A DNA stretch of 64,000 bases from Acidobacteriota bacterium (GTDB taxonomy: Bacteria > Acidobacteriota > Thermoanaerobaculia > Thermoanaerobaculales > Sulfomarinibacteraceae). The notes below the pieces were generated by a model. The model was not told the origin of the DNA. It searched no databases and worked only from the letters and a program-made list of their open reading frames with translations. The stretch is from NCBI GenBank assembly GCA_013152895.1, contig JAADFN010000181.1, forward strand, positions 1,143 to 65,142, written 5' to 3'. The translations under genes were made by a program, and so were the position numbers. Shown here piece after piece: positions 2,314 to 61,268 of this stretch (the first letter of the stretch is position 1; every line of letters begins with the position of its first letter).

Positions 2314-2703
2314 ATGGGGAAGGCTCAAAGCGGCGAGAGAACCGTGAGCGATGGCGGCCGGACGGTGTCGGCGTGGTGGCGGTGGGTGGGGGAGGATCTC
2401 GTCATGGTGATCGGGGGTGGAGCGCGGCCCCACGTGGGCTCGGTGGTGCTGGCGCAGCCCCGGCCGTCGAGCGCGAAACCGGGGCGGCGCTCGGCGACGG
2501 TTTCGGTGTTGAACATTCCGCCGCACAAGGACGAGGCGGTTGCACGCTCGATGGCCGAGACGCTTGCCGTCGAGCTCGGATGCACGGTGGTCGTGACGGC
2601 GGGGATCCACGAGGACGGGCTCGATGCGGCCGGAATCGAGAGCTATCTCGAGCTGGCCGGGCGGCTGGCGCGCGAGCTCATGCGCGCCGTCCGGGTGAGG
2701 TGA
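2314..2703 (+). CDS. LpdD-like small protein (prenylated-flavin chaperone-like fold)
   Basis: The ATG at 2314 follows GGAGGGGA. GGGARPHVGSVV...PPHKDEAVARSMAETLA...CTVVVTAGIHEDGL parallels the GGTNPHIGDV...HKD...TAGIH pattern I recall from Lactobacillus LpdD. Confidence 0.55.
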   Translation: MGKAQSGERTVSDGGRTVSAWWRWVGEDLVMVIGGGARPHVGSVVLAQPRPSSAKPGRRSATVSVLNIPPHKDEAVARSMAETLAVELGCTVVVTAGIHEDGLDAAGIESYLELAGRLARELMRAVRVR

Positions 2704-2709
2704 GAGGGA

Positions 2710-42829: not shown

Positions 42830-42945
42830 GTGCCCACGTCCTCTCCGTAGACGTATTATTCACGAGTTGGCGCGAATAATAAAGGAGGCCGTCCCCGGGA
42901 GACTCGATCGCTGATACGCACGGTGGCGCGGGGAAGCCGGCGGGC

Positions 42946-43650
42946 TCATGTCAGCCGGAGGCTGTCGAGCTCGATCGTCTGCTGCGTTTGCCGTACCTTG
43001 ATGATGGTACGGGGCGGATAGAACCCTCCGCGGAGGGTGGCGTTCGGGTAGGTGATCGAGCCGGGACCCAGCAGGACACCCGGGTTGAGGACCGTGTTAC
43101 AGCCCGTCTTGACGCCGTCGCCCAGGATGGCGCCGAACTTTCTCAAGCCGGTGTGGATCACCTCGCCACCGATGCGCATGGTGACCTCGCGGCCAACGTT
43201 CTTGACGTTCGAGAGGATGGTGCCGGCACCGAGATTGACATCCCGGCCGAGGATCGAGTCACCGACGTACGCCTGGTGGGGTGCCTTGGCGCCGGGGAAC
43301 AGGATGGCGCCCTTGACCTCGGTATGGGCGCCGACGAGCGATCCCTCTCCCAGGATCACGTGTTGACGGACGTATGCGCCGGTCCGGATCTGGGCGTTGG
43401 CCCCAATGATTGCGGGGCCGATGATCACGGCGCCGGGTTCGATGTGACACCCCTCGGCGATGTGGACCCGTGAGCCGAGGATGTGGACCCCTTCGGGCAG
43501 GTTGATCTGGATCGACCAGTCCTCCCACGCGTCGAGGTAGGTGGCAAGCTGGGCGCCGAGGGCGGACCAGGCAGGTTGACCCGCCGCGAAGATGCGGGCA
43601 TGCAGCCAGCCCTCGAGGGAGAAGAATGTGCCGGGCGAAAAATCCTGCAT
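42946..43650 (-). CDS. Left-handed beta-helix (hexapeptide-repeat) transferase, GlmU C-terminal-like
   Basis: The ATG at 43650 lies 6 nt after GGAGG and overlaps the upstream TGA. Repeated [LIV]G..[AV].I hexapeptides (IGPAIIGANAQIRTGAYV..., LGRDVNLGAGTILSN). Confidence 0.7.
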   Translation of the reverse strand: MQDFSPGTFFSLEGWLHARIFAAGQPAWSALGAQLATYLDAWEDWSIQINLPEGVHILGSRVHIAEGCHIEPGAVIIGPAIIGANAQIRTGAYVRQHVILGEGSLVGAHTEVKGAILFPGAKAPHQAYVGDSILGRDVNLGAGTILSNVKNVGREVTMRIGGEVIHTGLRKFGAILGDGVKTGCNTVLNPGVLLGPGSITYPNATLRGGFYPPRTIIKVRQTQQTIELDSLRLT

Positions 43651-44879
43651 CACGTACCTCCTCGCGTATCACCGGTCCGCCGGACGACCACGACCGTCTG
43701 GTCGTCCTCCAGCGGCCGGTTTTCACTGAACGATGATACGGCGTCGAAGATCGTGCCGATGATCTTCGACGCCGGCATGTCGCCCAGTCCCCCGACCAGC
43801 TTTTCGAGACGCGCCACGGAGAACTCCTCGTCGTTGCCCGGGTGGTGGGCCTCGGTGATTCCGTCGGTGTACAGAACGAAGAAGTCGCCCGGCGCCATGT
43901 GAAAGAGGTCAAAGCAGTACCGGCTATCCGGCATCGGGCCGAGAATCATGCCCCCCGTGCTGAGCTCCTCGATCGTTCCGGTCTTTCTGACGAGGAGACC
44001 GGGGGGATGCCCCGCGTTGCAGTACACGACGCCGCCGCCGACCTGCAGCTCTGCGAGGAAGAGCGACACGAACTTCGTCGCCAGCCTGCTCCGGTGGATG
44101 ATGCTGTTGAGCCGCTCAAGCGTCCTGGTGATCTTGAACTCCCGCGAGAGTCCCATTCTCAAGCCGGTGTAGACGTCTCTGACCTGCAGCGCGGCGGGCA
44201 ACCCGTGGCCCGTTGCATCGGCGATGACGACGTTGACGGTCATGTCGGTCAGGGTGATGAAATCGTAGAAATCTCCACCGACGACCTCGGCGGGAATTGT
44301 GCGGGCCGCCATGTCGAAACCTTCGTACTTGGGAATTCGGCTTGGAAGGATCGATTCTTGAATACGGCGGGCCTCTTCCAGGATCTCGTACATCCGTTCC
44401 TCGCGAAGCTTCTGGTTGATGGCAAGCCGCACGATATTGAGGATCGCGATGAGGTCTTCCTGGGCCGAGCTGGCCGGGGCGACGTCGAACGAGAGTGCAT
44501 ACCTCCTGTCCGCGACCATGATCGCGGCAAAATGATCCCGCGTCCCGATCTCGGATTCGAGCGAGGCGTCCAGGCCGGTGTCCGAAAGCGACATGCTGAC
44601 GCAGCCCTCGTCGTACAGACGCTCAAAAGGATGGTAATCGGTGGGGATCCGGAGCCCGAGCGGCGCCCTCGTCACCGTGCCAAACGTGCCGACGAGCTCG
44701 TAGTTCCCGAAATCATCCCGGGCGTAAATGCGTCCCCCCGTGATGCCAAGATCGTCGGAAAAGCTTTCGACGAGGAACTGGGCGGTCTGCCGGATCGTCT
44801 CGAGCGGCGTGGAGGCGTTGGCTATGGTCTCCAGAGCGCGTTCGATTCGGCGGAAAAGTGAAACCGGGCGGCGCGGCAT
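43650..44879 (-). CDS. GAF-domain PP2C-type (SpoIIE/RsbU-like) phosphatase
   Basis: C-terminal PPM motifs GGDFYDF, IADATGHG and LYTDGITEA. The N-terminal ~170 aa are GAF-like. Confidence 0.8.
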   Translation of the reverse strand: MPRRPVSLFRRIERALETIANASTPLETIRQTAQFLVESFSDDLGITGGRIYARDDFGNYELVGTFGTVTRAPLGLRIPTDYHPFERLYDEGCVSMSLSDTGLDASLESEIGTRDHFAAIMVADRRYALSFDVAPASSAQEDLIAILNIVRLAINQKLREERMYEILEEARRIQESILPSRIPKYEGFDMAARTIPAEVVGGDFYDFITLTDMTVNVVIADATGHGLPAALQVRDVYTGLRMGLSREFKITRTLERLNSIIHRSRLATKFVSLFLAELQVGGGVVYCNAGHPPGLLVRKTGTIEELSTGGMILGPMPDSRYCFDLFHMAPGDFFVLYTDGITEAHHPGNDEEFSVARLEKLVGGLGDMPASKIIGTIFDAVSSFSENRPLEDDQTVVVVRRTGDTRGGT

Positions 44880-45055
44880 GCCGGAATAATGTCACGGGTT
44901 TTGCGTTTGCACAAGACGGTGGCCGGGGAATATAGCCGATGGGTATCCCTCGCCACGACCGGAATCCAAAACAGCCCGGGAAAGCTCTGGGGGCGAGCCT
45001 CAACGAGCTTGTGTACAATTGTGCCCCGGCGAGCTCCTTCGCCTTGGAGGTCTTG

Positions 45056-45538
45056 GTGAAAGCCCTTATCGGAACGAGCGTATTGATCGTGATGGGCGCT
45101 GTGATGGCGCTGACAACGGCCGGATGCCACCGGGGCATCTCCGAAGAATCGGCGCCTCCCGTGCTTGCGTCCCACAGTGAGGGAAGCGTGGACTGGACGA
45201 GAAGCTGGGACGCTGCGGTCAAAAAGGCGCGGTCGAAGAATAGAACGATCCTGATCGACTTTTATGCCGATTGGTGCATCTGGTGCCGGCGGCTCGATGC
45301 GACCACCTACCGCGATCCCAAGGTCGTGGCATTCCTGACTGATCGCGTGGTAGCCACGAAGCTGAACGTCGACAAAAGAGAGGGCCGCAGCCTGTCCACC
45401 AAGTACCACGTTGACGGGCTCCCGACCATCCTGCTCCTGTCTGCGGACGGCCGCGAGCTCGGAAGGATCCCCGGTTACATGCCCGCCGGACAGTTCCTCG
45501 ACCGCCTAAACCAGATTCTCGGAACGGCCTCCAGGTAA
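45056..45538 (+). CDS. Thioredoxin-fold lipoprotein (DsbD-gamma / thioredoxin_7-like)
   Basis: The GTG at 45056 lies 6 nt after GGAGG. Lipobox ALTTAGC. Redox motif FYADWCIWCRRLD. Confidence 0.7.
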   Translation: MKALIGTSVLIVMGAVMALTTAGCHRGISEESAPPVLASHSEGSVDWTRSWDAAVKKARSKNRTILIDFYADWCIWCRRLDATTYRDPKVVAFLTDRVVATKLNVDKREGRSLSTKYHVDGLPTILLLSADGRELGRIPGYMPAGQFLDRLNQILGTASR

Positions 45539-45552
45539 GATCCCGGGGGATC
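45539..45552. other. Perfect 14-nt palindrome GATCCC-GG-GGGATC between the convergent stop codons
   Basis: Read directly at 45539..45552, between TAA (45536-45538) and the minus-strand TGA (45551-45553). It could act as a bidirectional hairpin. There is no U tract. Confidence 0.25.
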
Positions 45553-45970
45553 AACTGGAAGAGCGGGCGGGCTGGGTGAAGATCTCGGCGAAGCTGGTAT
45601 CTTCTGACAGCAGGGCGGGGCAGTCGCGAGCCGTGAGCCATGCGTGGTAGAGCCTGGTATTGCCGGCCTTCTTGATGCCGAGGTGGAGCTCCGGCTCGAG
45701 GCCGCAGCGGGACCAGAGGTCGAGGAGAATGAGTGAGCGCTTGAGGCATCGTCCCATGTGACGTGGGGGAAGGAACGAAGCGGTACGAGAGACGAGCGCA
45801 CCGGCGACAACGGGATCACGGAGAGGACGTGGGAGGGGAGAGACGCCGGAAAGCCACGCAGGAAGCTCGTCGAGGCCGTGCCGGCGGTAGCCGAAGGCGA
45901 CGCGAGCGGCGGCGAGCCCGACCCACGGGAGCAGGCAAAGCGCGCGAACCGCATTCCTTCTCATGCTCAT
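45551..45970 (-). CDS. Lasso-peptide B2-type transglutaminase-like cysteine protease (Transglut_core3-like)
   Basis: The ATG at 45970 is in an ATGA overlap with the upstream stop. MGRCLKRSLILLDLWSRCGLEPELHLGI...RLYHAWLTARD matches the Cys...His...Asp layout of lasso B2 proteins. 139 aa. Confidence 0.7.
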   Translation of the reverse strand: MSMRRNAVRALCLLPWVGLAAARVAFGYRRHGLDELPAWLSGVSPLPRPLRDPVVAGALVSRTASFLPPRHMGRCLKRSLILLDLWSRCGLEPELHLGIKKAGNTRLYHAWLTARDCPALLSEDTSFAEIFTQPARSSS

Positions 45971-47085
45971 GCCCGGCGTTTCACAACCTGTTCGAGGGCC
46001 TCGGCATACGCGCACGCTGCGCTTGAGGGACCCAGGATATCGCCATCTTCGACCAGCGCCTGCGCGTGGCACCGGCCGCAGTACGCAAGCCTCGAACATG
46101 TGGCGCAACCGCGAAGGTCCTGGCGCCGGATCTTGCGGAGCTTCGCAAGCCACGGCGACGTCTCCCAGATCTCCCGAAAGCTCATCTCGTTGATATTTCC
46201 CGATGAAGCAGGAAGGACATTGCACGCCAACACGTCTCCAGAAGGGGTAATGTTGGCGTACCGCACGCCCGCAGCGCAGAGTGGCCCGTCGCCGGCTGGT
46301 TGTTCGGCGTCATCGATCTCGCACCCGGTCTCCGGACCACCCCTGCCCAGCTGCACGGCATCTTCCGGGGCGAGGCGGAGCTTCAGCGGATCGGTGTTTC
46401 CATCCTTCCGGGCGAAGATTTTCGTATAGACCTTCGCCGGAACGTCGAGCTCCCCGGCAAGCTCGGGGACCGAGCTGCCACCATCGGGATTGAGAGTGGA
46501 GAGAGGAACGGTGAGCTCGACGGGGACGCCGCGCTCCCGTAACCGTGTGATGGCCGCGCGCACGGCCCTGAACGATCCCGGGATCGATGTGACGGCCTCG
46601 AAGACTGCTGGATCGCCGCTGTGGAAGCTGATCTCCGTCTGGAGGCCGAGCTCGGCGATACGATCGGCAGTCGGCTCATCGATCAGGGCGCCATTGGTGA
46701 GCAGCATGACCTGGAAGCCCAGGCTCCTCGCGTGCCTGGCGATCAGCGCCCAGTCTTTTCTCAGAAGCGGCTCGCCGCCCGTAAGCGCGAGGAAGAGCGT
46801 TCCCATGTCTGCGAGCTCATCCAGGAGGCGCATCAGACGTTCGGTTGAAACGCCGTTGGGAGCGTTGAAGTCCGGGATGTAGCAGTGACGGCAGCGGAAG
46901 TTGCAACGCCATGTCAGCTCGATGGAGATATCGAGCGGAATCAGCTCGCGAGCGGCCCGCTGGACCAGGCTGCGGAAGTGCGGCATGCCCTTGGTTTCGA
47001 TGCCCAGGTTTTCGGCCGTTCGCACGGGCACATGGCCCTGAGAGGCGCCCTCGTCGAAACGGTTCGTGCCGCGCGGGTCGCTCAT
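45967..47085 (-). CDS. Radical SAM/SPASM-domain peptide-modifying enzyme
   Basis: CNFRCRHC (CX3CX2C) and LTGGEPLL. SPASM-like C-terminus CAAGVRYANITPSGDVLAC...CATCSRLAYCGRC. The start at 47085 is in an ATGA overlap. An alternative start is 46986 (MPHFRSL). Confidence 0.85.
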   Translation of the reverse strand: MSDPRGTNRFDEGASQGHVPVRTAENLGIETKGMPHFRSLVQRAARELIPLDISIELTWRCNFRCRHCYIPDFNAPNGVSTERLMRLLDELADMGTLFLALTGGEPLLRKDWALIARHARSLGFQVMLLTNGALIDEPTADRIAELGLQTEISFHSGDPAVFEAVTSIPGSFRAVRAAITRLRERGVPVELTVPLSTLNPDGGSSVPELAGELDVPAKVYTKIFARKDGNTDPLKLRLAPEDAVQLGRGGPETGCEIDDAEQPAGDGPLCAAGVRYANITPSGDVLACNVLPASSGNINEMSFREIWETSPWLAKLRKIRRQDLRGCATCSRLAYCGRCHAQALVEDGDILGPSSAACAYAEALEQVVKRRA

Positions 47086-47819
47086 GCCGGGGCCGTGATC
47101 AGGTCCCATACCGACGGATCGGGGCGGAAGGCGAGGCGCCACACCGGGACCGAGGAGGCCAGCGCGCTCAACGTTTCAAAAGCGTCCGCAAATGCGGAGG
47201 CTTGCTCGACCGGCCAGTAGAAGTGACGCCGAAGCTCCCGGACGGCGCTGGGGGCGCCGAGCCGTGTCCGCACGTTTTCAGGACCGTGCTCCAACACAAA
47301 AACTCCGGCGAGCGGCGCATGGCCGGGACGTGCACGCCAGTAGGGGAGCGAGACGCCCTCGAAACCGCGAGTTGAAGCACGAACGAGGGCGAGCTCATCG
47401 CAGAGCGCGCGATCGCCACACAGGGCCGCAAGAGTGCTCTTGCCGCTCCCAGAGACGCCGCAACAAAGGTACCCGCGGTTTGCGTCCGTCAGGAGAGCCG
47501 CGTGGGCAACGATGGCCGGGGCGAGGAACTGTGGCAGCAGGTTTCTCAGGATACTGTCAACGTGATCGAGCGTGGCAGCCGTCCGCAGGGTGACGACACG
47601 GCCCGTCCCGTCCCACTCGACGGCCGGGCCGGCCTCTCCGGGTCGGTAAACGAGGATGGCGTCGGGCCCCGACGACGAGCTGCCGAATCCTTCGAACCGT
47701 CTTTTCAAGGCCCCGATTCGTGCCTCGTCGCCGGTACGAAACTCGATGGCAGCCCCGCCCATGTCAACTCGATGTGAGAACGTGCCCGGTAATTCGTCGG
47801 TGGGAAGGGGGGCGTTCAT
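47082..47819 (-). CDS. HPr-kinase-C-terminal-like P-loop protein (lasso-type precursor kinase candidate)
   Basis: Walker A CCGVSGSGKSTLAALCGDRALCDELALV resembles the HprK P-loop and following DD region. ATGA overlaps at both ends. Confidence 0.7.
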   Translation of the reverse strand: MNAPLPTDELPGTFSHRVDMGGAAIEFRTGDEARIGALKRRFEGFGSSSSGPDAILVYRPGEAGPAVEWDGTGRVVTLRTAATLDHVDSILRNLLPQFLAPAIVAHAALLTDANRGYLCCGVSGSGKSTLAALCGDRALCDELALVRASTRGFEGVSLPYWRARPGHAPLAGVFVLEHGPENVRTRLGAPSAVRELRRHFYWPVEQASAFADAFETLSALASSVPVWRLAFRPDPSVWDLITAPA

Positions 47820-48220
47820 GAATTCTGAGGATTTGTATTGCAGAGGTCACTGACGCCCGGTTGGAGAGCACAGGTTCCGGCAAACTGCCGAATCTCCTCC
47901 CGCCACTCGATCCGCGGTGCGGCCGCGCTCTCGGTGGTGTTCGGATCGGTTGGAAGACGACCCTCGAATTCGATCAGGCCTTCGCCGGCCAGATCCTTGA
48001 GAAAGGCGGCAAGATGTGATCGTGGAGTTTCGCCAACCCCGGCTTCGCTCAGCAGCAACCGCTCGAGATCTTCGAATTCGGCAGGCGTGGCGAGGGCGTT
48101 CCACACTCTGCCTGCAGTGACATTGAGCCCGTACATCTGCTTCCGTGACAAGTGGACAATGACCGTTTCTCCGCCGACATTCCTCCAGGCAAGGCCCTCC
48201 GCCCTCCGGATCCTTTCCAT
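47816..48220 (-). CDS. PqqD-family RiPP recognition element (lasso B1-like) with a 47-aa C-terminal tail
   Basis: The ATG at 48220 lies 6 nt after GGAGGGAGGA. LAWRNVGGETVIVHLSRKQMYGLNVTAGRVWNAL...LKDLAGEGLIE is PqqD-like. The tail is TDPNTTESAAAPRIEWREEIRQFAGTCALQPGVSDLCNTNPQNS. Confidence 0.7.
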   Translation of the reverse strand: MERIRRAEGLAWRNVGGETVIVHLSRKQMYGLNVTAGRVWNALATPAEFEDLERLLLSEAGVGETPRSHLAAFLKDLAGEGLIEFEGRLPTDPNTTESAAAPRIEWREEIRQFAGTCALQPGVSDLCNTNPQNS

Positions 48221-48286
48221 CCTCGATCCTCCCTCCATCTTCAAGCTCTACTCGTTATGCGTCTGCCCATCCCCCCGGCGAGGGCG

Positions 48287-48841
48287 TTACTGCACGATAA
48301 AAAAGTACGTCGGGTCGGGACAGGGCTTTCGCATCCCATCCATCTGGATCTCAACTTTCCATCGCCCGTAGAGCGAGCTCGTCACGATACTCGATCCCGC
48401 GACTGGCAACCGGACATTTATTGAATCGTAGAGAACATTGTTGTATTTCAGCGCCTGTGGCGCCTTGATCCGGACGGGATACGGGTACCCGGCCAGCCGT
48501 CGGCTTCCCATCGGCGTGTGTCCTTTTTGCGGCGCCACGGGGACGTTGAGCGTCTGGTACAGGTGGCCGCGCGGCGTATAGACCTTGAGCGTCACCACGT
48601 GGTTCTTGTCGAGCTTGCCCTGGAACAACACGTGAAACACGAGATCCGTCGTCCGTGTGGCCGAGAAACGATTCCGGCTGAGCTGCGCCGGGGTATCCAC
48701 GGCGGTGACGATGACCTGGGGGCAGGTCGATGCCGGTGGCCCAACGTAGCCGTGAACCTGCGTCTGAGCGAAGAGCGGGACACCGGAAAGAACCATGACG
48801 CCTGTCACAACAAGCGCAGAGCGAAGTGAACGGTATTTCAT
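48287..48841 (-). CDS. Secreted protein of unknown function (184 aa)
   Basis: Signal peptide MKYRSLRSALVVTGVMVLSGVPLFAQ. It starts 9 nt downstream of the giant gene's stop. Beta-rich sequence, no recognised motif. Confidence 0.6.
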   Translation of the reverse strand: MKYRSLRSALVVTGVMVLSGVPLFAQTQVHGYVGPPASTCPQVIVTAVDTPAQLSRNRFSATRTTDLVFHVLFQGKLDKNHVVTLKVYTPRGHLYQTLNVPVAPQKGHTPMGSRRLAGYPYPVRIKAPQALKYNNVLYDSINVRLPVAGSSIVTSSLYGRWKVEIQMDGMRKPCPDPTYFFIVQ

Positions 48842-48850
48842 GGCGCCTCC

Positions 48851-51800
48851 TTACTGAAGCGGTACCTGGACGCCATACACGGCGCCCGATTCAGAGCCGA
48901 CATAGAGTGTGCTGTTGACGTGGTCGTATGCGGGACTGCCGATCGTCGCCGAGCCATCTCCGAGCGTGACCGACGTGACGACGCTTCCATCCGCTGCGCT
49001 GAGCTGGTAGAGCTTGCCGTCGCTCGATCCGGCGTAGAGATAGGTGGGGTCGGCTCCGAAAACATGTAGAGGAATCGACGGTGAGGCGACACTGGTCTGT
49101 TTCCAGCCGAGGCTGGCGGAGCTTCCATCGTCCGTGATCGCCCAGATGTCGTTCGTCGTCGAGAAGTAGAGCCGACGCGGCGTCGACTGCGTGAACTGCG
49201 GAATGACATAGCCCTTGACCGGTCCATCGTCCGTGGCGTATGACCAGATCGTGTGCCCGTCAGCCGGATCGATCGCGTACACGATGCCGGAGTTGTTCCC
49301 GACATAGATCCGCCCGCCGTACAGGATCGGTGCGCCATCGATGTCACCGAGCGCCACCGACCAGACCTTCGTCAAGCTCGTTCCGTCGAAGCTCAGGCAC
49401 CACAAGGTGTCCTTCGATCCACCGGTCGAGCTTTCGCGGCTGGCGAAGTAGAGCCGGTTCGAGGCGTAGTCCACGCTGGCCGCCGACGAGATGATGCCAA
49501 TCCCGTTTGAACCACCGCCGTTATTGAAGCTGGTGATCGTGCTCCCGTCCGACGGATCGAGCATGTACATCGCGTTGTCCGCCGTTGCATCACGGGATCC
49601 GGCGAAGAGGACGCTCCAGCTTCCCCCAAAGTCGGTAAACATCCCGGCGGGGGACGCCAGCAGGATGTTTGAGAGCTGTGCGCTTTGCCAGAGGGTCACG
49701 CCGGTCTCGGCATTGACGGCGTAGACGTGGCCGTCCTCGGAACCGAGAAACACGACCATGGACGCGCCCGAGACGACGCTGGTCGGCACGACCGGCGGCC
49801 GGGCTTCTGCCGGGCCGTTCATCGCCATCGGCTTCCACGAATAGCTGCCGGTCCGCGGCCATGTGCCCCCGGAATCCCCGGGGTTCATCCCGTGCAGGAC
49901 ACGATCGTTCGAGACGGCCCACGTCGCGCCCGTCCCGATCGCCCCGGGATACACGCCGTTCGGCGCCAGCGCAGTGGCCTCCGAGTTGTAGACCCACTTG
50001 ACCTTGCCCGACGTGTCGAACGGTCTGGCTGTGACCGTCTTGGCGGACGAGAAGTTACCCGCGCCATCGTCCACGAAGGCGGTGTAATAGTACGTCGTTC
50101 CGTTGGTCAGCCCCGTGTCGGTGTAGCTGTCGTACGCTCCGAGGCTTCCGGCCTGGCTGACGATCGGTGTACACGTTGACTCGTCGGGGTAGGCCGACGT
50201 GTCGCGGCAGATTTTCGTCGATCCGTACACTCCGGTGGACGGGTTGACCCACTCGAGCGTGACCTGGCCGGAAGTCGCCCGGGCCGTGAAGCTCTGGAGC
50301 GGATCCGACGTCCCGGAGCTGCAGGTCGAGCCGGACAAGTTGGTTACCGAGACATCATCGATCAGCCATCCCACATAGGTGTTGTAATAGGAGTCCACTG
50401 AATCAAAGGTAAACCGAATGATCATATCGCTGGGAGATGATGGTGGAGATAGCGCGATGTCTCCCGACGCGGTCCACGCTGCGCCTGACGCATCGGCACA
50501 ATCCTTGTACCAGACCTGGTTCCAGGTCGTTCCTCCATCGTACGAGACGTCTACCTTCGTGATGTCATAGCCTCCGCTCGAATAACTTTCGACTTGCCGC
50601 CAGTATTCGAAGCTCAAGAGTGACGACGATGTGACGCCGGAGATTGTCGGCGACGTCAACGTGCCGGTGGTTGTTGCCCCGGTGTCGTAGTCGCAGCTCG
50701 AGTCCTGGCCGTAGTACCACGCATGCGTTCCCGACGTGGCCGGGGGACTGACACAACCGGTGCTGTTGACCTCGTGCCACAGCCCTCCGCTCGCGGTCCA
50801 TCCCGTCGATCCCGATTCGAAGTCTTCGGTCCAGGTGGTGTTGCCGGCCACTCCGCTCTTTTCGATCGTGTTGGCATCCTCGAAGCCGCCGTTGCAGGCA
50901 CCGCCATGCCCGACCGACGAGTCTTCGGCCCGAACGATGTAGTAGTACGTCGTGCCTCCGGCGACCGTCGTGTCTTCGTAATAGAGGTTCGTCACGCAGC
51001 TCGCCATGAGGGTGGACGAGTCAGGCGTGAAGCCGGACGTCGTGGATCGGTAGATGTTGTAGACGATCGAGGTACCGGTGGCGCAGTTCGACGTCGCGGC
51101 GTTCCACTCGAGCTTGAGGCCGCAGGTGCTGCCGGCCATTACGGTCACCGATTGGAGACCGTCGAACGTCGGTGGCGCACCCACGTTGTCGACGGCGGAT
51201 GCCGTGGTTCCGCCGTCGGTGGCGCACCCGTACCCGTTCGTCGCCTGGATACCGTAACTGTACGTTGTGCCGTTCGTGCCGGTCGTGTCGACGTACGAGG
51301 TCGTCGTTTCGGAAACATCGCTGGCGATCGCGCTGCCGCCGCGCAGGACGGAAAAGCTCCGGGTTCCAGATCCCCCGTCGTTCCAGGTCGCGGGCGTGTT
51401 CCATGTCAGGACGACGCCTGTGTCGTCGCATGCGTCACGGTCGGTTGCGGTCTGGATCCCGCCGAACGCGAACGAGTGGTCCGCGTCGGCCCCCGAGGTT
51501 CCCGCCGACCATGCGCTCGTGTTGCTGCAATTGTCGTTGACCGCCTGGACCGTGTAGGTGTGCGTTGCCGCATCGCCAGGCGTGTCCGTGTAGCTCGTTG
51601 CCGTGACCCCGGTCGCCACCGTGGTGCCATCGCGAGCCACGTTGTACGAGGTGGCGTTCGCCGCGGCGCTCCACGATACGCCGATACCGCTTGCAGCGCA
51701 CACCGAGATATCGCTCACGCTCGGTGCTGATGGCGTTGCCGGGAAGGCATCGGCGTCCGAAGCGGATGTCGCCGCCGACCACGCACCGGTGCAGGTCGAG

Positions 51801-54004
51801 TTGGTGCCGCGCACCTGGTAGGTATGGGAGGCCGAGTCGCCCGGGTTGTACGAGTACGGACTGCTCACGTTGGTGATCGTTGTCGTTCCGTCGATCAGCA
51901 GGTCGTACGCCGTCGCGCCGGTGACGGAGGTCCAACTGACCGTGACGCCTGTCTGTGCGCACTGGTCATCATCGCTGACGGACGGCGCCGCCGGCGTTGC
52001 GGGGGAGTCGTCTGCATCCGTGAAGCTCTGGGCGGCGCTGTCGGTGTAGCAGGTGTCGTCGAGCGCGCGAATAACGTAGCTATGAGAATTGGTATCGCCG
52101 GGGTTGTACAGGTCTCCCGAGGCGTAGTTGCTGACCGCAAGTGCGCCGTCAACGTAAAGATCGTGGCTCGTTGCGCCTGAGCCTGCCGTGTAGTTGACGT
52201 GTACGCCGTCCTGGGCGCACGCGCTGTTGTCTGTAATCGAGGTGATGACCGGCTGCCCCGGATCGGTGCATACGGCGCAGTCGGAGTACTTGAACGATGC
52301 GATGCGGGTGTGCCACTGGAAGTCACCGGTCGCGGTGTAATACTCCTGGGTGTACCAGAACGTGCAGTCATCGGAAGGGTCAATGCTCATCGAGGAGTAA
52401 TCACCCCATCGGCTGTGACCATCCTGCGAGCCGGTACCGTCCACAATCGACGATTCTGCCTGGGTCATCTCGTTCAGCGTATCGCCAGCGAGCCTTCCCG
52501 TGTAGTAAATCGAGGGGTACACGGATGAGCTGGACGCGCTGTATCCAAGCGCCATGTTCCCCATGTGATCCATCGCGATCGATCCCATCCAACGTGAAGT
52601 ACCGTCAGGTTCGTACGTTCCTGACTGGTAGATCGTGGGTGTTCCACCGGGATCCCTGATCTCATACCACCTGATGGCACTGTCGGCAGACGAGCCCGTG
52701 ACCGAGTGATTGACCACGAGCGACTCGTGATCGCCCGGGAAGTTCCGGTAGGCGAGGCGGTACATCATCCGGTCTGCCAGCGAATCCAGCTGCTGGGTGA
52801 CGCCCGGTTGTGCGATGCACGTGCCACCACTGCACGCTTCACTGAAGCTTGCGACGGTGAGTGTGGTCGGCCCCGTGAAGGTAGAATTGCTCGAATTGCT
52901 CCAGTCGATATGAAGCTTCCAGAAGAGCAGGCTCTGGCCGTCGCCTCCTTTTGCGACGACGTATTCCGGCGACCCCGAAGGCGGCTCGTTCGGTCCCTCC
53001 ATGTCGGCCGGCAGCAGGCCACCGTAGCTCGAATAGGGCCCAAAGCACTGGGTCACGGCGTTGGCATCGCCGTTGATCATCGCGGTACGGTCGTACGCGC
53101 AGATTTCGCCTCCGTCCCAGGTTTGGCCGTTGGCAAACATGTTGTACGTAATGTAGTACCCGTCCGGCCAGACTCCCATCTTGGGATAGTCGTTGAAGTC
53201 GGAGAAAGTATACTCGTAGAGGTACCAGGATCCGGTGGGATCGGACGTCTGGGAAACAGCGATACATTGATAATAGTTTGTCTTGTCATCGGTTTGCGAG
53301 ACCGCGAACTGCGTCATGATCCACCGGTTCGCCATTTGATCGTACTCGACGATCGGGTCGCCATCGTTGTCGTCGGCGCACTCGTTACCCGAGCCGAGGC
53401 TGCTCCAGAGGGTGTTCCCAGCGGCAGGTCCGTATGCGACGCTGGCATCGGACTTGTTGAAAATCGTGAACATCGTATTCGTCCACTGAACGTAGTAGTT
53501 CAGGCCGACGTCACCCTCAGTGTCTGGTGGTTCACTTGCGATCGTATAGCCGGACAGGCCATCCCCGCCACCTTCGAAGTTCAAGATCGGCGCCGGCATC
53601 AGCCTGGTACCCGGGGTCGTCTGGTCCGTGTAATGCAACTTGGAAGGTGGTGCTCCACCACCTTTGACCGCGTTCGGTGGCATGTTGATGCCCTCGGGAA
53701 GCTCGTGTTCCGGCATGAGGCGGATTTTCTTCGCAACAGGGAGCGGCTTGATGGTGCGCAGCGGGGGAGTCACGGCAAACGCGACGGGCCTGTAGACCGT
53801 GGCACCCTGCTTTTCCGGGGGGCTTGAGCCGTGCCACTGTGCATTGACGACCGGGACCGCGCCGAGCAGCAAAAGCCCTGGAAGGACGGCTAGCCCGAGC
53901 CATCGGCGAACCTGCGAACCCATCGCATGAGCGTCCGGATTCGTCTGAGGTCCCCCAGGCGCATGATTATCCCTCGACCCCCGTGTATTCTTGGATTCCA
54001 ACAT
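48851..54004 (-). CDS. Giant secreted multidomain protein (1717 aa): N-terminal unknown domain, tandem Fn3/Ig-like modules, a jelly-roll (MAM-like) domain and a C-terminal PQQ/BamB-like beta-propeller
   Basis: The ATG at 54004 follows GGAGGGG. Signal region SQVRRWLGLAVLPGLLLLGAVPVVNAQ. Propeller blades VYAVNAETGVTLWQS, VYAIDPADGHTIWSY and LYQLSAADGSVVTS. Jelly-roll region WTEDFESGSTGWTASGGLWH...GWLIDDVSV. Confidence 0.85.
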   Translation of the reverse strand: MLESKNTRGSRDNHAPGGPQTNPDAHAMGSQVRRWLGLAVLPGLLLLGAVPVVNAQWHGSSPPEKQGATVYRPVAFAVTPPLRTIKPLPVAKKIRLMPEHELPEGINMPPNAVKGGGAPPSKLHYTDQTTPGTRLMPAPILNFEGGGDGLSGYTIASEPPDTEGDVGLNYYVQWTNTMFTIFNKSDASVAYGPAAGNTLWSSLGSGNECADDNDGDPIVEYDQMANRWIMTQFAVSQTDDKTNYYQCIAVSQTSDPTGSWYLYEYTFSDFNDYPKMGVWPDGYYITYNMFANGQTWDGGEICAYDRTAMINGDANAVTQCFGPYSSYGGLLPADMEGPNEPPSGSPEYVVAKGGDGQSLLFWKLHIDWSNSSNSTFTGPTTLTVASFSEACSGGTCIAQPGVTQQLDSLADRMMYRLAYRNFPGDHESLVVNHSVTGSSADSAIRWYEIRDPGGTPTIYQSGTYEPDGTSRWMGSIAMDHMGNMALGYSASSSSVYPSIYYTGRLAGDTLNEMTQAESSIVDGTGSQDGHSRWGDYSSMSIDPSDDCTFWYTQEYYTATGDFQWHTRIASFKYSDCAVCTDPGQPVITSITDNSACAQDGVHVNYTAGSGATSHDLYVDGALAVSNYASGDLYNPGDTNSHSYVIRALDDTCYTDSAAQSFTDADDSPATPAAPSVSDDDQCAQTGVTVSWTSVTGATAYDLLIDGTTTITNVSSPYSYNPGDSASHTYQVRGTNSTCTGAWSAATSASDADAFPATPSAPSVSDISVCAASGIGVSWSAAANATSYNVARDGTTVATGVTATSYTDTPGDAATHTYTVQAVNDNCSNTSAWSAGTSGADADHSFAFGGIQTATDRDACDDTGVVLTWNTPATWNDGGSGTRSFSVLRGGSAIASDVSETTTSYVDTTGTNGTTYSYGIQATNGYGCATDGGTTASAVDNVGAPPTFDGLQSVTVMAGSTCGLKLEWNAATSNCATGTSIVYNIYRSTTSGFTPDSSTLMASCVTNLYYEDTTVAGGTTYYYIVRAEDSSVGHGGACNGGFEDANTIEKSGVAGNTTWTEDFESGSTGWTASGGLWHEVNSTGCVSPPATSGTHAWYYGQDSSCDYDTGATTTGTLTSPTISGVTSSSLLSFEYWRQVESYSSGGYDITKVDVSYDGGTTWNQVWYKDCADASGAAWTASGDIALSPPSSPSDMIIRFTFDSVDSYYNTYVGWLIDDVSVTNLSGSTCSSGTSDPLQSFTARATSGQVTLEWVNPSTGVYGSTKICRDTSAYPDESTCTPIVSQAGSLGAYDSYTDTGLTNGTTYYYTAFVDDGAGNFSSAKTVTARPFDTSGKVKWVYNSEATALAPNGVYPGAIGTGATWAVSNDRVLHGMNPGDSGGTWPRTGSYSWKPMAMNGPAEARPPVVPTSVVSGASMVVFLGSEDGHVYAVNAETGVTLWQSAQLSNILLASPAGMFTDFGGSWSVLFAGSRDATADNAMYMLDPSDGSTITSFNNGGGSNGIGIISSAASVDYASNRLYFASRESSTGGSKDTLWCLSFDGTSLTKVWSVALGDIDGAPILYGGRIYVGNNSGIVYAIDPADGHTIWSYATDDGPVKGYVIPQFTQSTPRRLYFSTTNDIWAITDDGSSASLGWKQTSVASPSIPLHVFGADPTYLYAGSSDGKLYQLSAADGSVVTSVTLGDGSATIGSPAYDHVNSTLYVGSESGAVYGVQVPLQ
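50851..52261 (-). repeat. Protein-level tandem repeat: about five Fn3/Ig-like modules inside the giant CDS
   Basis: Recurring pattern C(A)..G(V).V.W....GATsYdL..DG......S.YsY.PGD...HTY.V.a.N..C (for example CAQTGVTVSWTSVTGATAYDLLIDG..., CAASGIGVSWSAAANATSYNVARDG...). It spans residues ~590-1060 counted from the track ORF. Confidence 0.7.
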
Positions 54005-54048
54005 GTTCCCCTCCAGTCCCAAAACCAAGGCAAGTCTCTCTTATCATC

Positions 54049-54077
54049 TATATAGCATCTCACGGGACTCGGTGCAA
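54049..54077 (-). promoter_or_regulatory. Candidate sigma70-type promoter for the giant-protein/RiPP unit
   Basis: Minus strand reads TTGCAC (54077-54072), a 17-nt spacer, then TATATA (54054-54049). It lies ~45 nt upstream of the ATG at 54004, in a visibly AT-richer divergent intergenic region. Confidence 0.35.
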
Positions 54078-54336
54078 GTCACTCCTTGGTCTGAGTGAGA
54101 AGTTTACAGAACTTTCACAAAGGAACAGCGCGAAGAGCGCATAGAAGTAACTGCGGACACGTAACTTAGGGATTACCCGCTTTGTAGCTGAGAACCGGTC
54201 GCAAGGCAGCGATATATTGGAATTTCGCAACTTCCCGGCTGGGAGGACGGATCGAGGTTGCTCGGCTACTTTGCGACGGGATTTCTGCAGCTGGCACCAT
54301 GAGCCCGGCTGCGCTATGGTCTTCTCGGAGGTGGCT

Positions 54337-55275
54337 ATGGAAAAACGGCCGCGGGCTCTCGTAACGGGTGGAGCAGGATTTCTTGGATCGCATCTGTGCG
54401 AGCGGTTGCTCGACGAGGGATGCTCGGTGGTTTGTATGGACAACCTCATCACCGGATCGCTCACCAACATCGAACATCTCTTCGGACGAGAAGGGTTCGT
54501 CTTCGTCAAACATGACGTGACAAACTTCATCCATGTGCCGGGACGGGTCGATTACATCCTGCACTTCGCGTCGCCAGCGTCGCCGATCGACTACCTCAAG
54601 CTCCCGATCCAGACGCTCAAGGTCGGGTCGCTCGGGACACACAAGGCGCTTGGGCTGGCGAAATCGAAGGGTTCGCGCTTCCTGCTCGCGTCGACGTCGG
54701 AGGTCTACGGCGATCCGCTCGTGCATCCCCAGCCGGAGAGCTACTGGGGCAACGTTCATCCGGTGGGACCGCGCGGCGTTTACGACGAGGCCAAGCGATT
54801 CGCCGAGGCGTTGACGATGGCGTACCATCGGCATCACGGGGTCGAGACGCGCATCGTTCGAATCTTCAATACCTACGGGCCGCGGATGCGGGCAGGGGAT
54901 GGGCGGGTGGTGCCGACGTTCATCAACCAGGCCCTGGCTGGAGAGCCGCTGACGGTCTTTGGGGATGGATCTCAGACGCGGTCTTTCTGCTACGTGGACG
55001 ATCTCGTCGAGGGCCTCTGGCGGCTTCTCAACTCGGATCATGCTGAGCCCGTCAATATCGGGAATCCCAAGGAGATGACCGTTCTCCAGTTTGCGAAGGA
55101 GATCGTCCGGCTGACCGGGTCGAAATCGAAGATCGTGTTCGAGCCGTTGCCGGAGGATGATCCAAAGGTTCGCCAACCAGATATCACTCTGGCTCGCAAG
55201 CTTCTCGAGTGGGAGCCAGAAGTTCCGCTGGATCGGGGGCTGGCCCGCACGATCGAGTACTTCAAGAACGCGTGA
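54337..55275 (+). CDS. UDP-glucuronate decarboxylase (UDP-xylose synthase), SDR family
   Basis: The ATG at 54337 follows [29 protein letters not shown] and YDEAKR catalytic motif. Confidence 0.9.
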
Positions 55276-55336
55276 GTCCCGGGCGCGATGGATTCGAAAA
55301 CGATGATGGTACATCACATCGGACTCCTCCGGTGCC

Positions 55337-55365
55337 TTGACGCGTGAGATACCCAAGACTAGATT
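55337..55365 (+). promoter_or_regulatory. Candidate sigma70-type promoter
   Basis: TTGACG (55337-55342), a 17-nt spacer, then TAGATT (55360-55365), ~80 nt upstream of the ATG at 55445. Confidence 0.3.
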
Positions 55366-55444
55366 GAGAGAGGATACGGACACGGTGAAAGCGAATCTAT
55401 CGTTCATGTCTGGTTTCATGTCTTGTGAGCCCTGGAGGTGTTTC

Positions 55445-56395
55445 ATGGTGTCTCGAGTTCTTGTTGGGGCGCTCGTGGTTGCCGTTCTTGCCGCGGCGGT
55501 CCCGGCGTCGGCCCAGGTTGTCTCTCCCGTTCATTTTCTTCCGGTGGTTGTCAAGGCGAAGGGCGTTGCAGGCACGCTTTGGCGCAGCGATGTCTCCATC
55601 ACGAACTTGACGAACAAGGCAGTCACGGTGACCGCTGCATACCTCCCCGAAAAACAGACGAACTTTCCACCGTTGCAGCACACGCACGAGTTCACGTTGC
55701 AGTCGAGACAGACGATTCTCGTGGAGGATGTTGTCGGGAAGTGGTTCCCCGGCTTTGGCGACAATACGAAGGGTGCCATGCTGGTGTACACGGAGAATCC
55801 TTCCTTCAGCAAGGGGATGTTCCTGAGCAAGGACGCGCTCATGGCCCAGGGGAAGGGTGAGGCGGCGCCGTCTCTGGCGGTCACAAGCCGGGCGTACAAC
55901 GCGGCGAATCCGGATGCGACGTATGGCCAGACCGTTGCGTCGAATCCGTACGGCTATTTTTTCGGAATCGCGGCCGGTGAGATGACCGGTATGCGGCAAG
56001 ACACGAGGTTCCGCACGAACATCGGGGTGGTCAACCTCTCGGGACTGACGGCGGCCGTGCTGGTCACGGTGTACGACGAGACGGGACGCCTCCTCGCTCA
56101 CAAGACTGAGCATGTTGAGGGGTTCTCCCTCCGACAGTGGAACCTCAAGCGTGAGTTCGGGGTCGACGGTCTGCACGACGGCTTGGTTGAGGTGAAGATC
56201 GATCCGTCGGTCGCAAATCAGGACCCCTGTGGCAACACGGCGGGCGGCCTGTCTCCGATGCTGGTCGCGTATTATTCGAAAAACGACTTCGCCACGGGAG
56301 ATGCCGAGTTCGGCGTCGCCCAGGTGGACTGGAGGCAGTACGCGGTGGAGTGCCACGAAAGCCCGATGGAGCAGTGTCCGGCCGTCGGTGAGTGA
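55445..56395 (+). CDS. Secreted protein of unknown function
   Basis: The ATG at 55445 follows GGAGGTG. Signal peptide MVSRVLVGALVVAVLAAAVPASA. N-terminal HFLPVVVKAKGVAGTLWRSDVSITN pattern. Confidence 0.6.
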   Translation: MVSRVLVGALVVAVLAAAVPASAQVVSPVHFLPVVVKAKGVAGTLWRSDVSITNLTNKAVTVTAAYLPEKQTNFPPLQHTHEFTLQSRQTILVEDVVGKWFPGFGDNTKGAMLVYTENPSFSKGMFLSKDALMAQGKGEAAPSLAVTSRAYNAANPDATYGQTVASNPYGYFFGIAAGEMTGMRQDTRFRTNIGVVNLSGLTAAVLVTVYDETGRLLAHKTEHVEGFSLRQWNLKREFGVDGLHDGLVEVKIDPSVANQDPCGNTAGGLSPMLVAYYSKNDFATGDAEFGVAQVDWRQYAVECHESPMEQCPAVGE

Positions 56396-60905: not shown

Positions 60906-61268
60906 TCAGGCGAGCTCCCGCTCGATGACCCGAGCCGCTCTCCGGAGGTAATAGCCTGCCTTGGCGGGCAGGCCGTTCCGGCGGAGCACGAGCACAACAT
61001 AGTAACCGTCGGAAAGCAGCTCAGTCAATGACGTCAGGTGAGCCGCAGAGATCGTATAAGAACGCACAAAGCCGGCTTCGGTCGCCTCAAACGCCTGATT
61101 GATCCTTCTTTTGAAGATGCTGTGATATGCCCCTTCGACCTTGAGCTCATATGGATCGCCCTCCCTCGTGACGCACTCGATCGTTTCGCCCTCGTGATCA
61201 AGAAAAATGGCACCAACAGCTTCGGGAACATCGACGAGGAGGTTTGTTAAAATATAATTGAACGGCAT
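60906..61268 (-). CDS. Roadblock/LC7 (MglB-like) domain protein
   Basis: A 120-aa product starting MPFNYILTNLLVDVPEAVGAIFLDHEGETI. The alpha-beta-alpha pattern is typical of Roadblock/LC7. TGATG overlap with the upstream TPR reading frame. Confidence 0.65.
   Translation of the reverse strand: MPFNYILTNLLVDVPEAVGAIFLDHEGETIECVTREGDPYELKVEGAYHSIFKRRINQAFEATEAGFVRSYTISAAHLTSLTELLSDGYYVVLVLRRNGLPAKAGYYLRRAARVIERELA

Follow-up and report, generated by a model that had tools for sequence, protein, structure and literature searches.

Two secreted proteins and a peptide-modifying enzyme set probably form one conserved operon in an uncultured Acidobacteria genome

Introduction

Several described systems combine the types of protein considered here. 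In the PQQ and mycofactocin pathways, a PqqD-type chaperone, a radical SAM/SPASM enzyme and a peptidase act on the conserved C-terminal segment of a ribosomal peptide. In borosins such as omphalotin, the core peptide is the C-terminus of the biosynthetic protein itself (OphMA) and must be cut off. Qhp maturation involves QhpC, QhpD and QhpE with the propeller subunit QhpB; a small peptide has its Cys residues cross-linked by a radical SAM/SPASM enzyme, loses its leader to a protease and ends as the partner of a periplasmic beta-propeller protein. The combination of a PqqD protein, a ScmC/HprK-like protein and a radical SAM/SPASM enzyme is covered by curated models (ScmC/ScmD/ScmE and GeoRSP), whose descriptions, to our knowledge, assign no precursor. 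Our search of the literature on SynChlorMet, ScmC, PF27840 and cassettes of RRE, radical SAM and kinase genes found nothing relevant.

A further group for comparison is the split-B lasso pathways with HPr-kinase-like tailoring (paeninodin, pseudomycoidin and Bsf types). In lasso precursors, the C-terminal Ser is a phosphorylation target of HPr-kinase homologs (PMC8498205), and YxxPxL is the lasso leader motif (PMC10368454). In the passages on fusions retrieved from a 2025 RRE survey, RREs are joined only to other domains or enzymes, and the survey mentions neither HPr nor a kinase.

Here we describe six genes from an uncultured Acidobacteria genome that probably constitute one conserved operon, encoding two secreted proteins and a peptide-modifying enzyme set. 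In its RRE, B2-like protease and HPr-kinase-like protein, this enzyme set is similar to split-B lasso pathways, but with a radical SAM/SPASM enzyme replacing the cyclase.

The six-gene locus

Positions are those of the window, the whole 64,000-nt stretch of DNA that was analyzed. The features of interest are listed below.

54049 to 54077, minus strand: promoter-like element, TTGCAC-17-TATATA, its -10 extended by TG; the ATG at 54004 follows 45 nt downstream
48851 to 54004, minus strand: giant secreted protein, 1717 aa from its ATG, with Pfam PQQ_2 and RGI_lyase matches
48287 to 48841, minus strand: 184-aa secreted protein, signal peptide and beta-sandwich, no Pfam or NCBIfam match
47963 to 48220, minus strand: RRE (PqqD/lasso-B1-like) domain, residues 1-86 of the 134-aa PqqD protein (Pfam PqqD)
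47819 to 47920, minus strand: putative fused precursor segment, PqqD residues 101-134, a tail conserved in related loci
47082 to 47819, minus strand: ScmC-family HPr-kinase-like P-loop protein, 245 aa, its start overlapping the PqqD stop (ATGA)
45967 to 47085, minus strand: radical SAM/SPASM enzyme, 372 aa counted from the start codon in the ATGA overlap (Pfam Radical_SAM and SPASM)
45551 to 45970, minus strand: lasso-B2-like cysteine protease of transglutaminase fold, 139 aa, overlapping the radical SAM stop (ATGA)
45539 to 45552, no strand assigned: imperfect palindrome GATCCCGGGGGATC (GATCCC-GG-GGGATC), between the convergent stops of a thioredoxin-like gene and the B2 gene

The genes follow one another on the minus strand in the order giant, 184-aa, PqqD (whole gene 47816-48220), ScmC/HprK-like, radical SAM/SPASM and B2-like. 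A 9-nt gap (48842-48850) with a GGAGG Shine-Dalgarno sequence separates the two genes for secreted proteins, a 66-nt gap (48221-48286) lies between the 184-aa and PqqD genes, and each of the three remaining junctions (PqqD/ScmC, ScmC/radical SAM and radical SAM/B2) is an ATGA overlap. This is the arrangement given in the initial annotation, gaps and overlaps included, and its remark that the 66-nt gap has no obvious terminator also holds: the consensus scan found no terminator-like site there, the gap has no significant RNA structure (z = -0.40), and neither a hairpin nor a conserved promoter-like element was found in it. Among relatives, the corresponding gap ranges from 40 to 140 nt, with a ribosome-binding site as its sole conserved element. 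In strand, short gaps or overlaps and kept order, the six genes look like an operon. The last four (PqqD, ScmC, radical SAM and B2) are probably a translationally coupled RiPP maturation cassette.

The promoter-like element noticed upstream of the giant gene is present at 54049-54077. It agrees with the sigma-70 consensus at only 7/12 positions, which is why it is absent from the consensus scan; for the minus strand of the unit, that scan gave no sigma-70-like site. L005, the closest relative, keeps both hexamers and the TG while the spacer has diverged, and keeps the giant-gene ATG (54004 here) and its Shine-Dalgarno sequence too. The operon is probably transcribed from this element. At the other end, the palindrome on which the unit was said to end does exist, but is at most a putative terminator: the stem is only 5-6 bp, there is no T-run, and the terminator scan does not list it among its sites. 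The terminator-like sites in the consensus scan number 10, against 7.0 +/- 2.7 expected, which is not above chance.

The six genes probably share a single transcript, as had been proposed for the RiPP genes and the secreted proteins, because the neighborhood is kept in relatives, the 184-aa/PqqD gap conserves only a ribosome-binding site, and the upstream promoter-like element is conserved; the 184-aa gene may nevertheless contain an internal promoter. The same evidence supports regarding the secreted pair and the RiPP-type genes as one functional unit.

The cassette enzymes and described systems

The PqqD protein scores 39.2 bits against Pfam PqqD (cut-off 23.4) and so qualifies as a discrete RRE. 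Of five AlphaFold models, one is confident; the best Foldseek matches of its RRE are complexes of the lasso RRE TbiB1 with leader (5v1v and 5v1u; TM 0.86, rmsd 1.5-1.8 A). Homologs of the kinase-like protein fall in Pfam PF27840 ‘ScmC’, and its NCBIfam matches, to HprK_rel_A/B and ScmC, are weak and below cut-offs (HprK_rel_A gives 25.8 bits versus a cut-off of 200). The family profile matches HPr kinase/phosphatase (1ko7) weakly, with E 2.4e-4 over ~115 positions, and the Walker A residues G121, G124, G126, K127 and T129 are invariant in the family.

The radical SAM enzyme scores 83.6 bits for Radical_SAM and 36.2 bits for SPASM in Pfam, and matches no NCBIfam family at or above cut-off. It has the CX3CX2C motif at 61-68 (Cys 61, 65 and 68) and eight further Cys in its C-terminal half (255-358), including CX2CX5CX2C at 327-339. 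As expected of an RRE-dependent radical SAM/SPASM RiPP system (sactipeptide/ranthipeptide-like), the cassette combines an RRE with a radical SAM enzyme that has CX3CX2C and SPASM; its product would then be predicted to carry a thioether or other radical SAM-made cross-link. The B2-like protein matches Pfam Transglut_core3 (38.3 bits, cut-off 26) and comes just below the cut-off of NCBIfam lasso_biosyn_B2 (30.6 bits versus 33); candidate Cys and His residues lie in RCLKRS and YHAWL.

Similarities to split-B lasso pathways include the discrete PqqD-type RRE whose model matches TbiB1, a B2-like transglutaminase-fold protease, an HPr-kinase-like P-loop protein, precursors ending in Ser, a YxxPx[VIL] leader in free relatives of the precursor, and NTP_transf_5 genes in some related loci (L019, L056 and L069). 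There are also differences. No match to an asparagine-synthetase-like lasso cyclase was found in the six genes or the scanned neighbors, and a radical SAM/SPASM gene fills the cyclase slot in all related loci. The core carries a pair of invariant Cys; no ring-forming Asp/Glu (core position 7-9) is conserved, nor is Thr(-2), and the fused tail retains only P-R-I-x-W of the leader. The putative precursor is fused to the RRE, there is no ABC exporter, and genes for two secreted proteins accompany the cassette. Without a cyclase and without the full set of lasso precursor features, the cassette was not assigned to the lasso family.

With SynChlorMet (Scm) and GeoRSP cassettes it shares the trio of PqqD-like, HprK-related/ScmC and radical SAM/SPASM proteins, and weak NCBIfam matches to ScmC, ScmE, the GeoRSP radical SAM protein and HprK_rel_A/B. 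These scores are far under the curated cut-offs, and SynChlorMet membership (TIGR04248-04251), which calls for ScmC, ScmD and two radical SAM/SPASM proteins (ScmE and ScmF) at equivalog level, was rejected: ScmC gives 17.2 bits versus 125 and ScmE 88.7 versus 400, and there is one radical SAM gene instead of two. The B2 protease, fused precursor and additional secreted partner genes are further differences. As in the PQQ and mycofactocin pathways, there is a PqqD-type chaperone, a radical SAM/SPASM enzyme and a peptidase, but membership in either was likewise rejected. With the PqqE and MftC models the radical SAM enzyme reaches 96-98 bits, short of the family cut-offs; the termini typical of these pathways (Glu/Tyr or Val-Tyr) and their other genes are absent; and the kinase-like protein and B2 protease set the cassette apart.

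Two other systems offer partial parallels. As in borosins, the substrate appears to be encoded at the C-terminal end of one of the pathway's own proteins and has to be cut off; unlike in borosins, the carrier is a non-catalytic RRE instead of the modifying enzyme, and chemistry and phylogeny are unrelated. Qhp maturation is a precedent for linkage of such a cassette to secreted proteins, by analogy only, no sequence relationship between the two having been found; the ABC exporter, haem subunit and flavoprotein are missing here, and there is no Trp in the core.

A putative precursor fused to the PqqD protein

At its C-terminus the PqqD protein has a conserved tail, PRIEWREEIRQFAG-TCALQPGVSDLCNTNPQNS, in which a leader-like recognition motif, APRIEWREEIRQFAG (PRIEWREE), precedes the putative core TCALQPGVSDLCNTNPQNS (47819-47875). 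The core has ~19 residues and ends in Ser (...NPQNS); its two invariant Cys are spaced nine residues apart. In the PqqD model, the IEWREE strand block has pLDDT ~86 and the core is disordered. The tail is kept in all related loci, behind a variable linker; it is present in 116/154 top representatives. Among these 116 fused tails, the Cys spacing is 9 in 103, and the last residue is Ser in 80 and Thr in 8. For a RiPP core, such conservation would be unusual.

Some related cassettes have a short PqqD gene instead, adjoined by a free precursor ORF of 55-59 aa with the motif PYEKPxVxWxE...C-x9-C...S-stop. A profile of the fused tails matched these free precursors only marginally (E about 0.1), and the L018 ORF not at all, so the reverse comparison was needed, with a profile built from 10 free precursors, all ending in Ser. 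Searched against 13,858 segments, it matched fused tails at E 1e-4 to 8e-3. The tail in the window itself gave only E 0.17; thus, its link to the free precursors is transitive, by way of the tails of its relatives. The fused tail provides the cluster with a Cys-containing precursor. It was missed because the protein to which it belongs bears no annotation beyond ‘PqqD family protein’. That the substrate peptide of the cassette would be the tail of the operon's own PqqD protein is part of an explanation that we rate, taken as a whole, as reasonably likely.

The two secreted proteins

In the giant protein, a signal peptide (residues ~28-56) is followed by a ~560-aa N-terminal domain, FN3/Ig-like repeats and, in about the last 480 aa, a PQQ-like/BamB-like beta-propeller. 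Sequence matches in the PDB are to designed propellers, BamB and an Fn3-like protein, and the Pfam search gave no family match for the N-terminal 560 aa. In the distant locus L020, the propeller module alone is the conserved partner. Pfam and NCBIfam scans of the 184-aa protein (p184) were without any match; its AlphaFold model is all-beta (pLDDT 81.7), with weak, generic Ig-like matches only in Foldseek. Its family comprises 60 clusters, with 19 invariant columns that include two Cys (C40 and C174). None of the 19 matches the leader motif P-x-[IVL]-x-W.

Linkage across relatives

The locus scan used alignment A2, A1 being too divergent. Among relatives of the kinase-like gene, every genome locus that includes upstream DNA (12/12) runs giant, p184, PqqD, ScmC, radical SAM and B2, and the same order is found in L021-L025. 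In the reverse direction, starting from metagenome loci with a p184 relative, cassette genes are present in 31-32 of about 46 informative ones. The synteny check suggested earlier, of whether the secreted and RiPP genes co-occur, therefore comes out positive both ways. The pair and the cassette occur in three gene orders (pair upstream, pair downstream, and divergent in L060), and the linkage holds down to about 31-35% p184 identity. The distant L020 has the order propeller, p184, precursor, PqqD, radical SAM and ScmC. No conserved exporter was found beside the cassette in the longer loci. There are exceptions: about 14 informative metagenome loci have propeller and p184 without the cassette, the distant cassettes L018 and L019 have a precursor and no secreted pair, and L015 holds one orphan ScmC homolog. 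The coupling is therefore frequent, not obligate.

The exceptions bear on the possibility that the adjacency is merely inherited gene order, with separate units lying head to tail in this lineage and no functional coupling. Pairs without cassettes and the pair-less L018 and L019 are what that would produce. We think it unlikely, given that the neighborhood survives all three arrangements, that the association is kept down to such low p184 identity, and that the variable gap between pair and cassette conserves nothing but its ribosome-binding site.

The initial annotation also raised the alternative that the target of the enzymes is a secreted protein and not a small peptide. The cassette would then mature the 184-aa or giant protein in the cytoplasm before export, and the PqqD tail would be a docking or regulatory extension. 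Radical SAM/SPASM maturases acting on exported proteins are well established, examples being QhpD, whose target is the small subunit of quinohemoprotein amine dehydrogenase, and the anaerobic sulfatase maturases. The tight, conserved linkage, the lack of an exporter in the unit and a PqqD tail more conserved than typical RiPP cores would all suit such a scheme. We nevertheless regard it as quite improbable because a substrate can be identified, the PqqD-fused precursor, with homologous free ORFs that carry a lasso-type YxxPxL-like leader in short-PqqD cassettes. Moreover, the B2 protease tracks the fused form, being present in 24/25 complete fused loci and absent from complete free-precursor loci, and L018 and L019 possess the precursor without the secreted pair. 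The 184-aa protein itself has only two invariant Cys, a Sec signal peptide and no leader motif in its invariant columns.

Base composition

The segment had been described as less GC-rich than its flanks, and modestly it is: 61.4% versus 65.5% for the rest of the window, at the 5th percentile of same-size windows. The count of 29/60 G+C at 50341-50400 and the AT-rich run in the 184-aa gene were confirmed. The further suggestion of a horizontally acquired island fares poorly. Synonymous-site composition does not follow the overall difference: GC3 is 0.78 in the giant gene and 0.74 in the 184-aa gene (background 0.80 +/- 0.04), and these two and the three enzyme genes are within about 1.6 sd of background. 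It is GC1 of the giant gene that is about 3 sd low (0.52 versus 0.68), so the deficit reflects amino-acid composition. Recent acquisition would fit the overall GC and the low GC3 of the small PqqD gene (0.65), but the low-GC zone continues past the unit to ~56.4 kb, over conserved neighbors (54217-56395). The window scans found no tRNA genes and no flanking repeats (Rfam, tRNA and repeat scans were empty or uninformative), and there is no mobility gene among the scanned neighbors. A divergent UXS-like flanking gene is retained in L004, L005 and L017. We rejected the island reading, which we consider highly improbable as the cause of the lower GC.

Proposed mechanism and significance

We favor, as reasonably likely overall, a conserved six-gene operon of Thermoanaerobaculia/Holophagae-type Acidobacteria, which would comprise the secreted pair, a RiPP cassette with a built-in substrate, and a peptide functioning with the pair. 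The RRE of the PqqD protein would present its own tail; the radical SAM/SPASM enzyme would add a cross-link, most likely via the invariant Cys; and the HPr-kinase-like ScmC protein would modify the C-terminal Ser, by analogy with HPr-kinase homologs on lasso precursors. The B2-like cysteine protease would then sever the peptide from the RRE, and the mature peptide would be a ligand, subunit or cofactor of the secreted propeller/beta-sandwich pair, functioning together with it. That the peptide may act together with the secreted proteins, as was first suggested, is the natural reading of the synteny. Only tentatively would we go further, to a peptide that is the dedicated partner of the pair (ligand, cross-linked small subunit or peptide-derived cofactor) and comes from an undescribed RiPP family, with the whole operon building one extracytoplasmic protein-peptide machine.

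The fused tail would supply a substrate for an enzyme set that has been an orphan, in a family of at least 116 clusters at 50% identity. It also gives a signature that can be used in genome mining: an RRE, a linker, PxIxWxE, C-x9-C and a C-terminal Ser. The tie to a secreted propeller and a small beta-sandwich protein is a lead to the function of the peptide, which is the usual gap in RiPP genome mining. On the more tentative reading above, this would be a new RiPP family whose precursors are joined to their own RRE, and in which lasso-type leader handling (B1, B2 and kinase) has been recombined with radical SAM chemistry.

Gene layout and boundaries of the unit

The unit consists of six minus-strand genes, the last four of which form the cassette.

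Genes of the unit, in 5' to 3' order
48851-54004, minus strand: giant secreted protein, 1717 aa counted from ATG
48287-48841, minus strand: 184-aa secreted protein (p184)
47816-48220, minus strand: PqqD protein, 134 aa
47082-47819, minus strand: ScmC/HprK-like protein, 245 aa
45967-47085, minus strand: radical SAM (rSAM)/SPASM enzyme, 372 aa
45551-45970, minus strand: B2-like protease (B2), 139 aa

All sequence features listed in the initial annotation were found again on re-checking. The 9-nt gap between the first two genes contains GGAGG, 66 nt separate p184 from PqqD, and the three remaining junctions (PqqD/ScmC, ScmC/rSAM, rSAM/B2) are all ATGA overlaps. The 66-nt gap has no significant RNA structure (z = -0.40), and only its ribosome-binding site is conserved in a comparison of the window with loci L005 and L026.

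The promoter-like element TTGCAC-17-TATATA is indeed present at 54077-54049; it agrees with the consensus at only 7/12 positions and is absent from the output of the consensus scan. Both hexamers and the TG of an extended -10 are kept, with a diverged spacer, in L005, the closest relative, as are the giant-gene ATG at 54004 and its Shine-Dalgarno sequence. This phylogenetic footprint thus speaks in favour of a genuine promoter and of the 1717-aa start. The ATG at 54004 leaves ~27 mostly polar residues before the signal peptide, an unusually long n-region (53923-54004); an alternative start at 53923 would yield a standard signal peptide.

At the other end, the palindrome taken as the end of the unit reads GATCCC-GG-GGGATC (45539-45552) and lies between the convergent stop codons of B2 and a thioredoxin-like gene. 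That boundary holds only in that the next gene is convergent. The palindrome has no T-run. The thioredoxin-like protein (44939-45538, 12 nt from the B2 stop) is similar to the C-terminal domain of DsbD; its N-terminus is hydrophobic and includes a possible lipobox (LTTAGC). No homolog of it was seen across L001-L019; a full DsbD gene adjoins the cassette in L052. Further downstream, 41189-44879 holds a 546-aa ORF whose N-terminus looks Ser/Thr protein kinase-like by eye, an ORF of 235 aa and a phosphatase of the SpoIIE/PP2C type. L008, L009 and L014 likewise have a SpoIIE homolog, ~1.8 kb downstream of B2.

Synteny of the secreted pair and the cassette

The giant protein has a signal peptide and a ~560-residue N-terminal domain that matches no family; FN3/Ig-like repeats follow, and the C-terminal part is a PQQ-like/BamB-like propeller. 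The 184-aa protein has a signal peptide, a confidently modelled beta-sandwich (pLDDT 81.7) and two invariant Cys; no informative structural relative was found, and its small family has no Pfam entry.

The proposal that this pair shares an operon, and co-occurs, with the cassette is supported by synteny in both directions of search. The forward test scanned one genome per species with a ScmC-like protein alignment and gave 19 loci. Exact protein matches assign the window to an uncultured Acidobacteria MAG (locus tags GXP48_), and MAGs of Thermoanaerobaculia and Holophagae are its closest relatives. Wherever upstream DNA is available (12/12 loci), the order is that of the window, with p184/PqqD gaps of 40-140 nt, and the same neighbourhood surrounds the more distant ScmC homologs of L023, L024 and L025 (33-37% identity to the window protein in alignment A1).

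In the reverse test, a distant p184 member, P0118 (35% identity), lies in L020 in the order propeller > p184 > PqqD > rSAM > ScmC, where the propeller protein shares 42% identity with the last 480 residues of the giant protein. Scanning metagenomes with the p184 alignment yielded 78 loci, 32 of them too short to judge. Cassette genes are present in 31-32 of the 78; in about 14 informative loci, propeller > p184 occurs with no cassette. The propeller is directly upstream of p184 in 40/56. Three gene orders can be distinguished.

Gene orders
A (window type): giant > p184 > PqqD > ScmC > rSAM > B2
B: propeller > p184 > free precursor > short PqqD > rSAM > ScmC
C: NTP_transf_5 > PqqD-tail > ScmC > rSAM > B2 > p184 > p184

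Since the neighbourhood is kept through these rearrangements, comparison of the loci argues for a functional coupling of pair and cassette beyond mere inherited order. The coupling is frequent, not obligate, as L015 has an orphan ScmC homolog and the distant cassettes of L018 and L019 lack the secreted pair. The L015 homolog (6532-7314, 40% identity) is flanked by genes for a UbiA-like membrane protein and for a TPR protein, with no PqqD, rSAM, B2 or p184 gene nearby. In L002, tandem giant-protein paralogs (12-3443 and 3887-8836) precede the p184 gene. No conserved exporter adjoins the cassette among the longer loci.

Base composition

The lower GC content on which the initial annotation had based a possible horizontally acquired island is real. 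Its count of 29/60 G+C at 50341-50400 and the AT-rich run in the p184 gene are both exact, and the region that it flagged has 61.4% GC vs 65.5% elsewhere in the window (65% overall), the 5th percentile among same-size windows. The island itself is unsupported. GC3 is 0.78 in the giant gene and 0.74 in the p184 gene (background 0.80 +/- 0.04), and only the small PqqD gene is low (0.65). With GC3 at background and GC1 low in the giant gene (0.52 vs 0.68 +/- 0.05), the deficit is mainly one of amino-acid composition. Scans of the window found no tRNA genes, Rfam matches or flanking repeats, and no mobility genes were among the neighbours examined.

The GC minimum, centred on 50-56 kb, takes in the neighbouring genes at 54217-56395, so the low-GC zone is wider than the unit. 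One of these is a divergent gene for a UXS-like NAD-dependent epimerase/dehydratase; the other encodes a 352-aa protein that matches no family and whose N-terminal segment is hydrophobic. Both are at ~60% GC; the UXS-like gene is kept in L004, L005 and L017. The lowest-GC kilobase of the window, 61001-62000 (57.4%), has no tRNA gene or Rfam match.

Fused and free precursors

The window PqqD protein is ~45 residues longer than a plain RRE, the peptide-binding domain. All relatives of types A and C carry a conserved C-terminal tail, preceded by a linker that is variable and acidic or Pro-rich; in the window protein the tail is APRIEWREEIRQFAG-TCALQPGVSDLCNTNPQNS-stop. Loci with a short PqqD (85-103 aa) instead contain an uncalled 55-59-aa ORF with the pattern of the tail inside the cassette, for example in L020 (10611-10790, ...PYEKPAVTWRETLGSMPTLMSGCAKMSASDPICVAAPPPGS). 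At least 10 such free precursors lie between p184 and PqqD, and every one ends in Ser; in L018 and L019 the ORF adjoins the rSAM gene. Free precursors carry Y-x-x-P-x-[VIL], and YxxPxL is the lasso leader motif (PMC10368454).

An HMM built from ten free precursors was searched against 13,858 six-frame segments. It found further free precursors (E 1e-21 to 1e-12), the L019 ORF (2.6e-5) and the fused tails of eight relatives (1e-4 to 8e-3). Inside the window it matches the tail best, though at no better than E 0.17; a fused-tail HMM matches the same tail at E 2e-24. Homology of the window tail to the free precursors is therefore transitive. In a profile search of 1.84 billion representatives, 116/154 top matches have a W-x-[ED]...C-x9-C...end tail on a PqqD domain, with a Cys spacing of 9 in 103 of these tails and a C-terminal Ser in 80 or Thr in 8. 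It is unlikely that the cassette acts on a secreted protein, the alternative raised in the initial annotation.

Of five AlphaFold models of the window PqqD protein, the best has a pLDDT of 75.7 and the rest fall below 50. In the best model the RRE is folded, IEWREE (residues 104-109) forms a confident strand and the core is disordered; structurally it comes closest to lasso TbiB1-leader complexes (TM 0.86).

A second type of PqqD-fused tail among the representatives has the same leader-like P-x-[IVL]-x-W-x-E motif; its core differs, reading ...Q.SPP..IGNPQC.. and having just one Cys, close to the end (P0213, P0215, P0227, P0231, P0238, P0245, P0255, P0259, P0262, P0267 and P0268). Its sequence suggests a sister family of RRE-fused precursors.

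Cassette enzymes

B2 is present in 24/25 complete fused-precursor loci (the exception is L024) and absent from complete free-precursor loci. By tracking the fused precursor, it fits a role in cutting the peptide off the RRE; B2 would thus be the cleaving protease. The rSAM/SPASM enzyme, which has CX3CX2C and whose C-terminal half is rich in Cys and matches SPASM, would make a Cys-based cross-link. It reaches the cut-off of no curated NCBIfam family; the highest partial scores come from models of haem-related and peptide maturases, among them GeoRSP, PqqE, MftC and ScmE.

The kinase-like protein is a member of Pfam PF27840 'ScmC', and its Walker A motif is invariant; among solved structures, HPr kinase/phosphatase gives the best extended match (E 2.4e-4). 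In lasso clusters, HPr-kinase homologs phosphorylate the linear precursor at its C-terminal Ser, and NTP_transf-type enzymes can then decorate that phosphate (PMC8498205). The kinase-like protein would likewise act on the terminal Ser. Genes for NTP_transf_5, an uncharacterised nucleotidyltransferase, stand beside the cassette in type C loci and a distant deltaproteobacterial locus (L056 2017-3243, L069 3922-5082, L019 11935-12948), the same arrangement as in those lasso clusters where the phosphorylated C-terminal Ser is decorated; the window's unit has none.

Relation to known systems

Part by part, the cassette works as a kinase-tailored split-B lasso pathway would. Lasso membership was rejected, as there is no cyclase and no ring-forming core, and the cassette also fails the curated models for Scm, GeoRSP, PQQ and mycofactocin. 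Borosins are the nearest architectural analogy to the RRE-fused precursor, and maturation of quinohemoprotein amine dehydrogenase is a loose precedent for the association with the secreted pair. No paper describing the cassette was found in the literature searched, which is absence of evidence only. The cassette is best described as a newly recognised variant of RRE-dependent radical SAM RiPP systems, and its standout features are a precursor fused to its own RRE and a conserved association with a secreted propeller/beta-sandwich pair.
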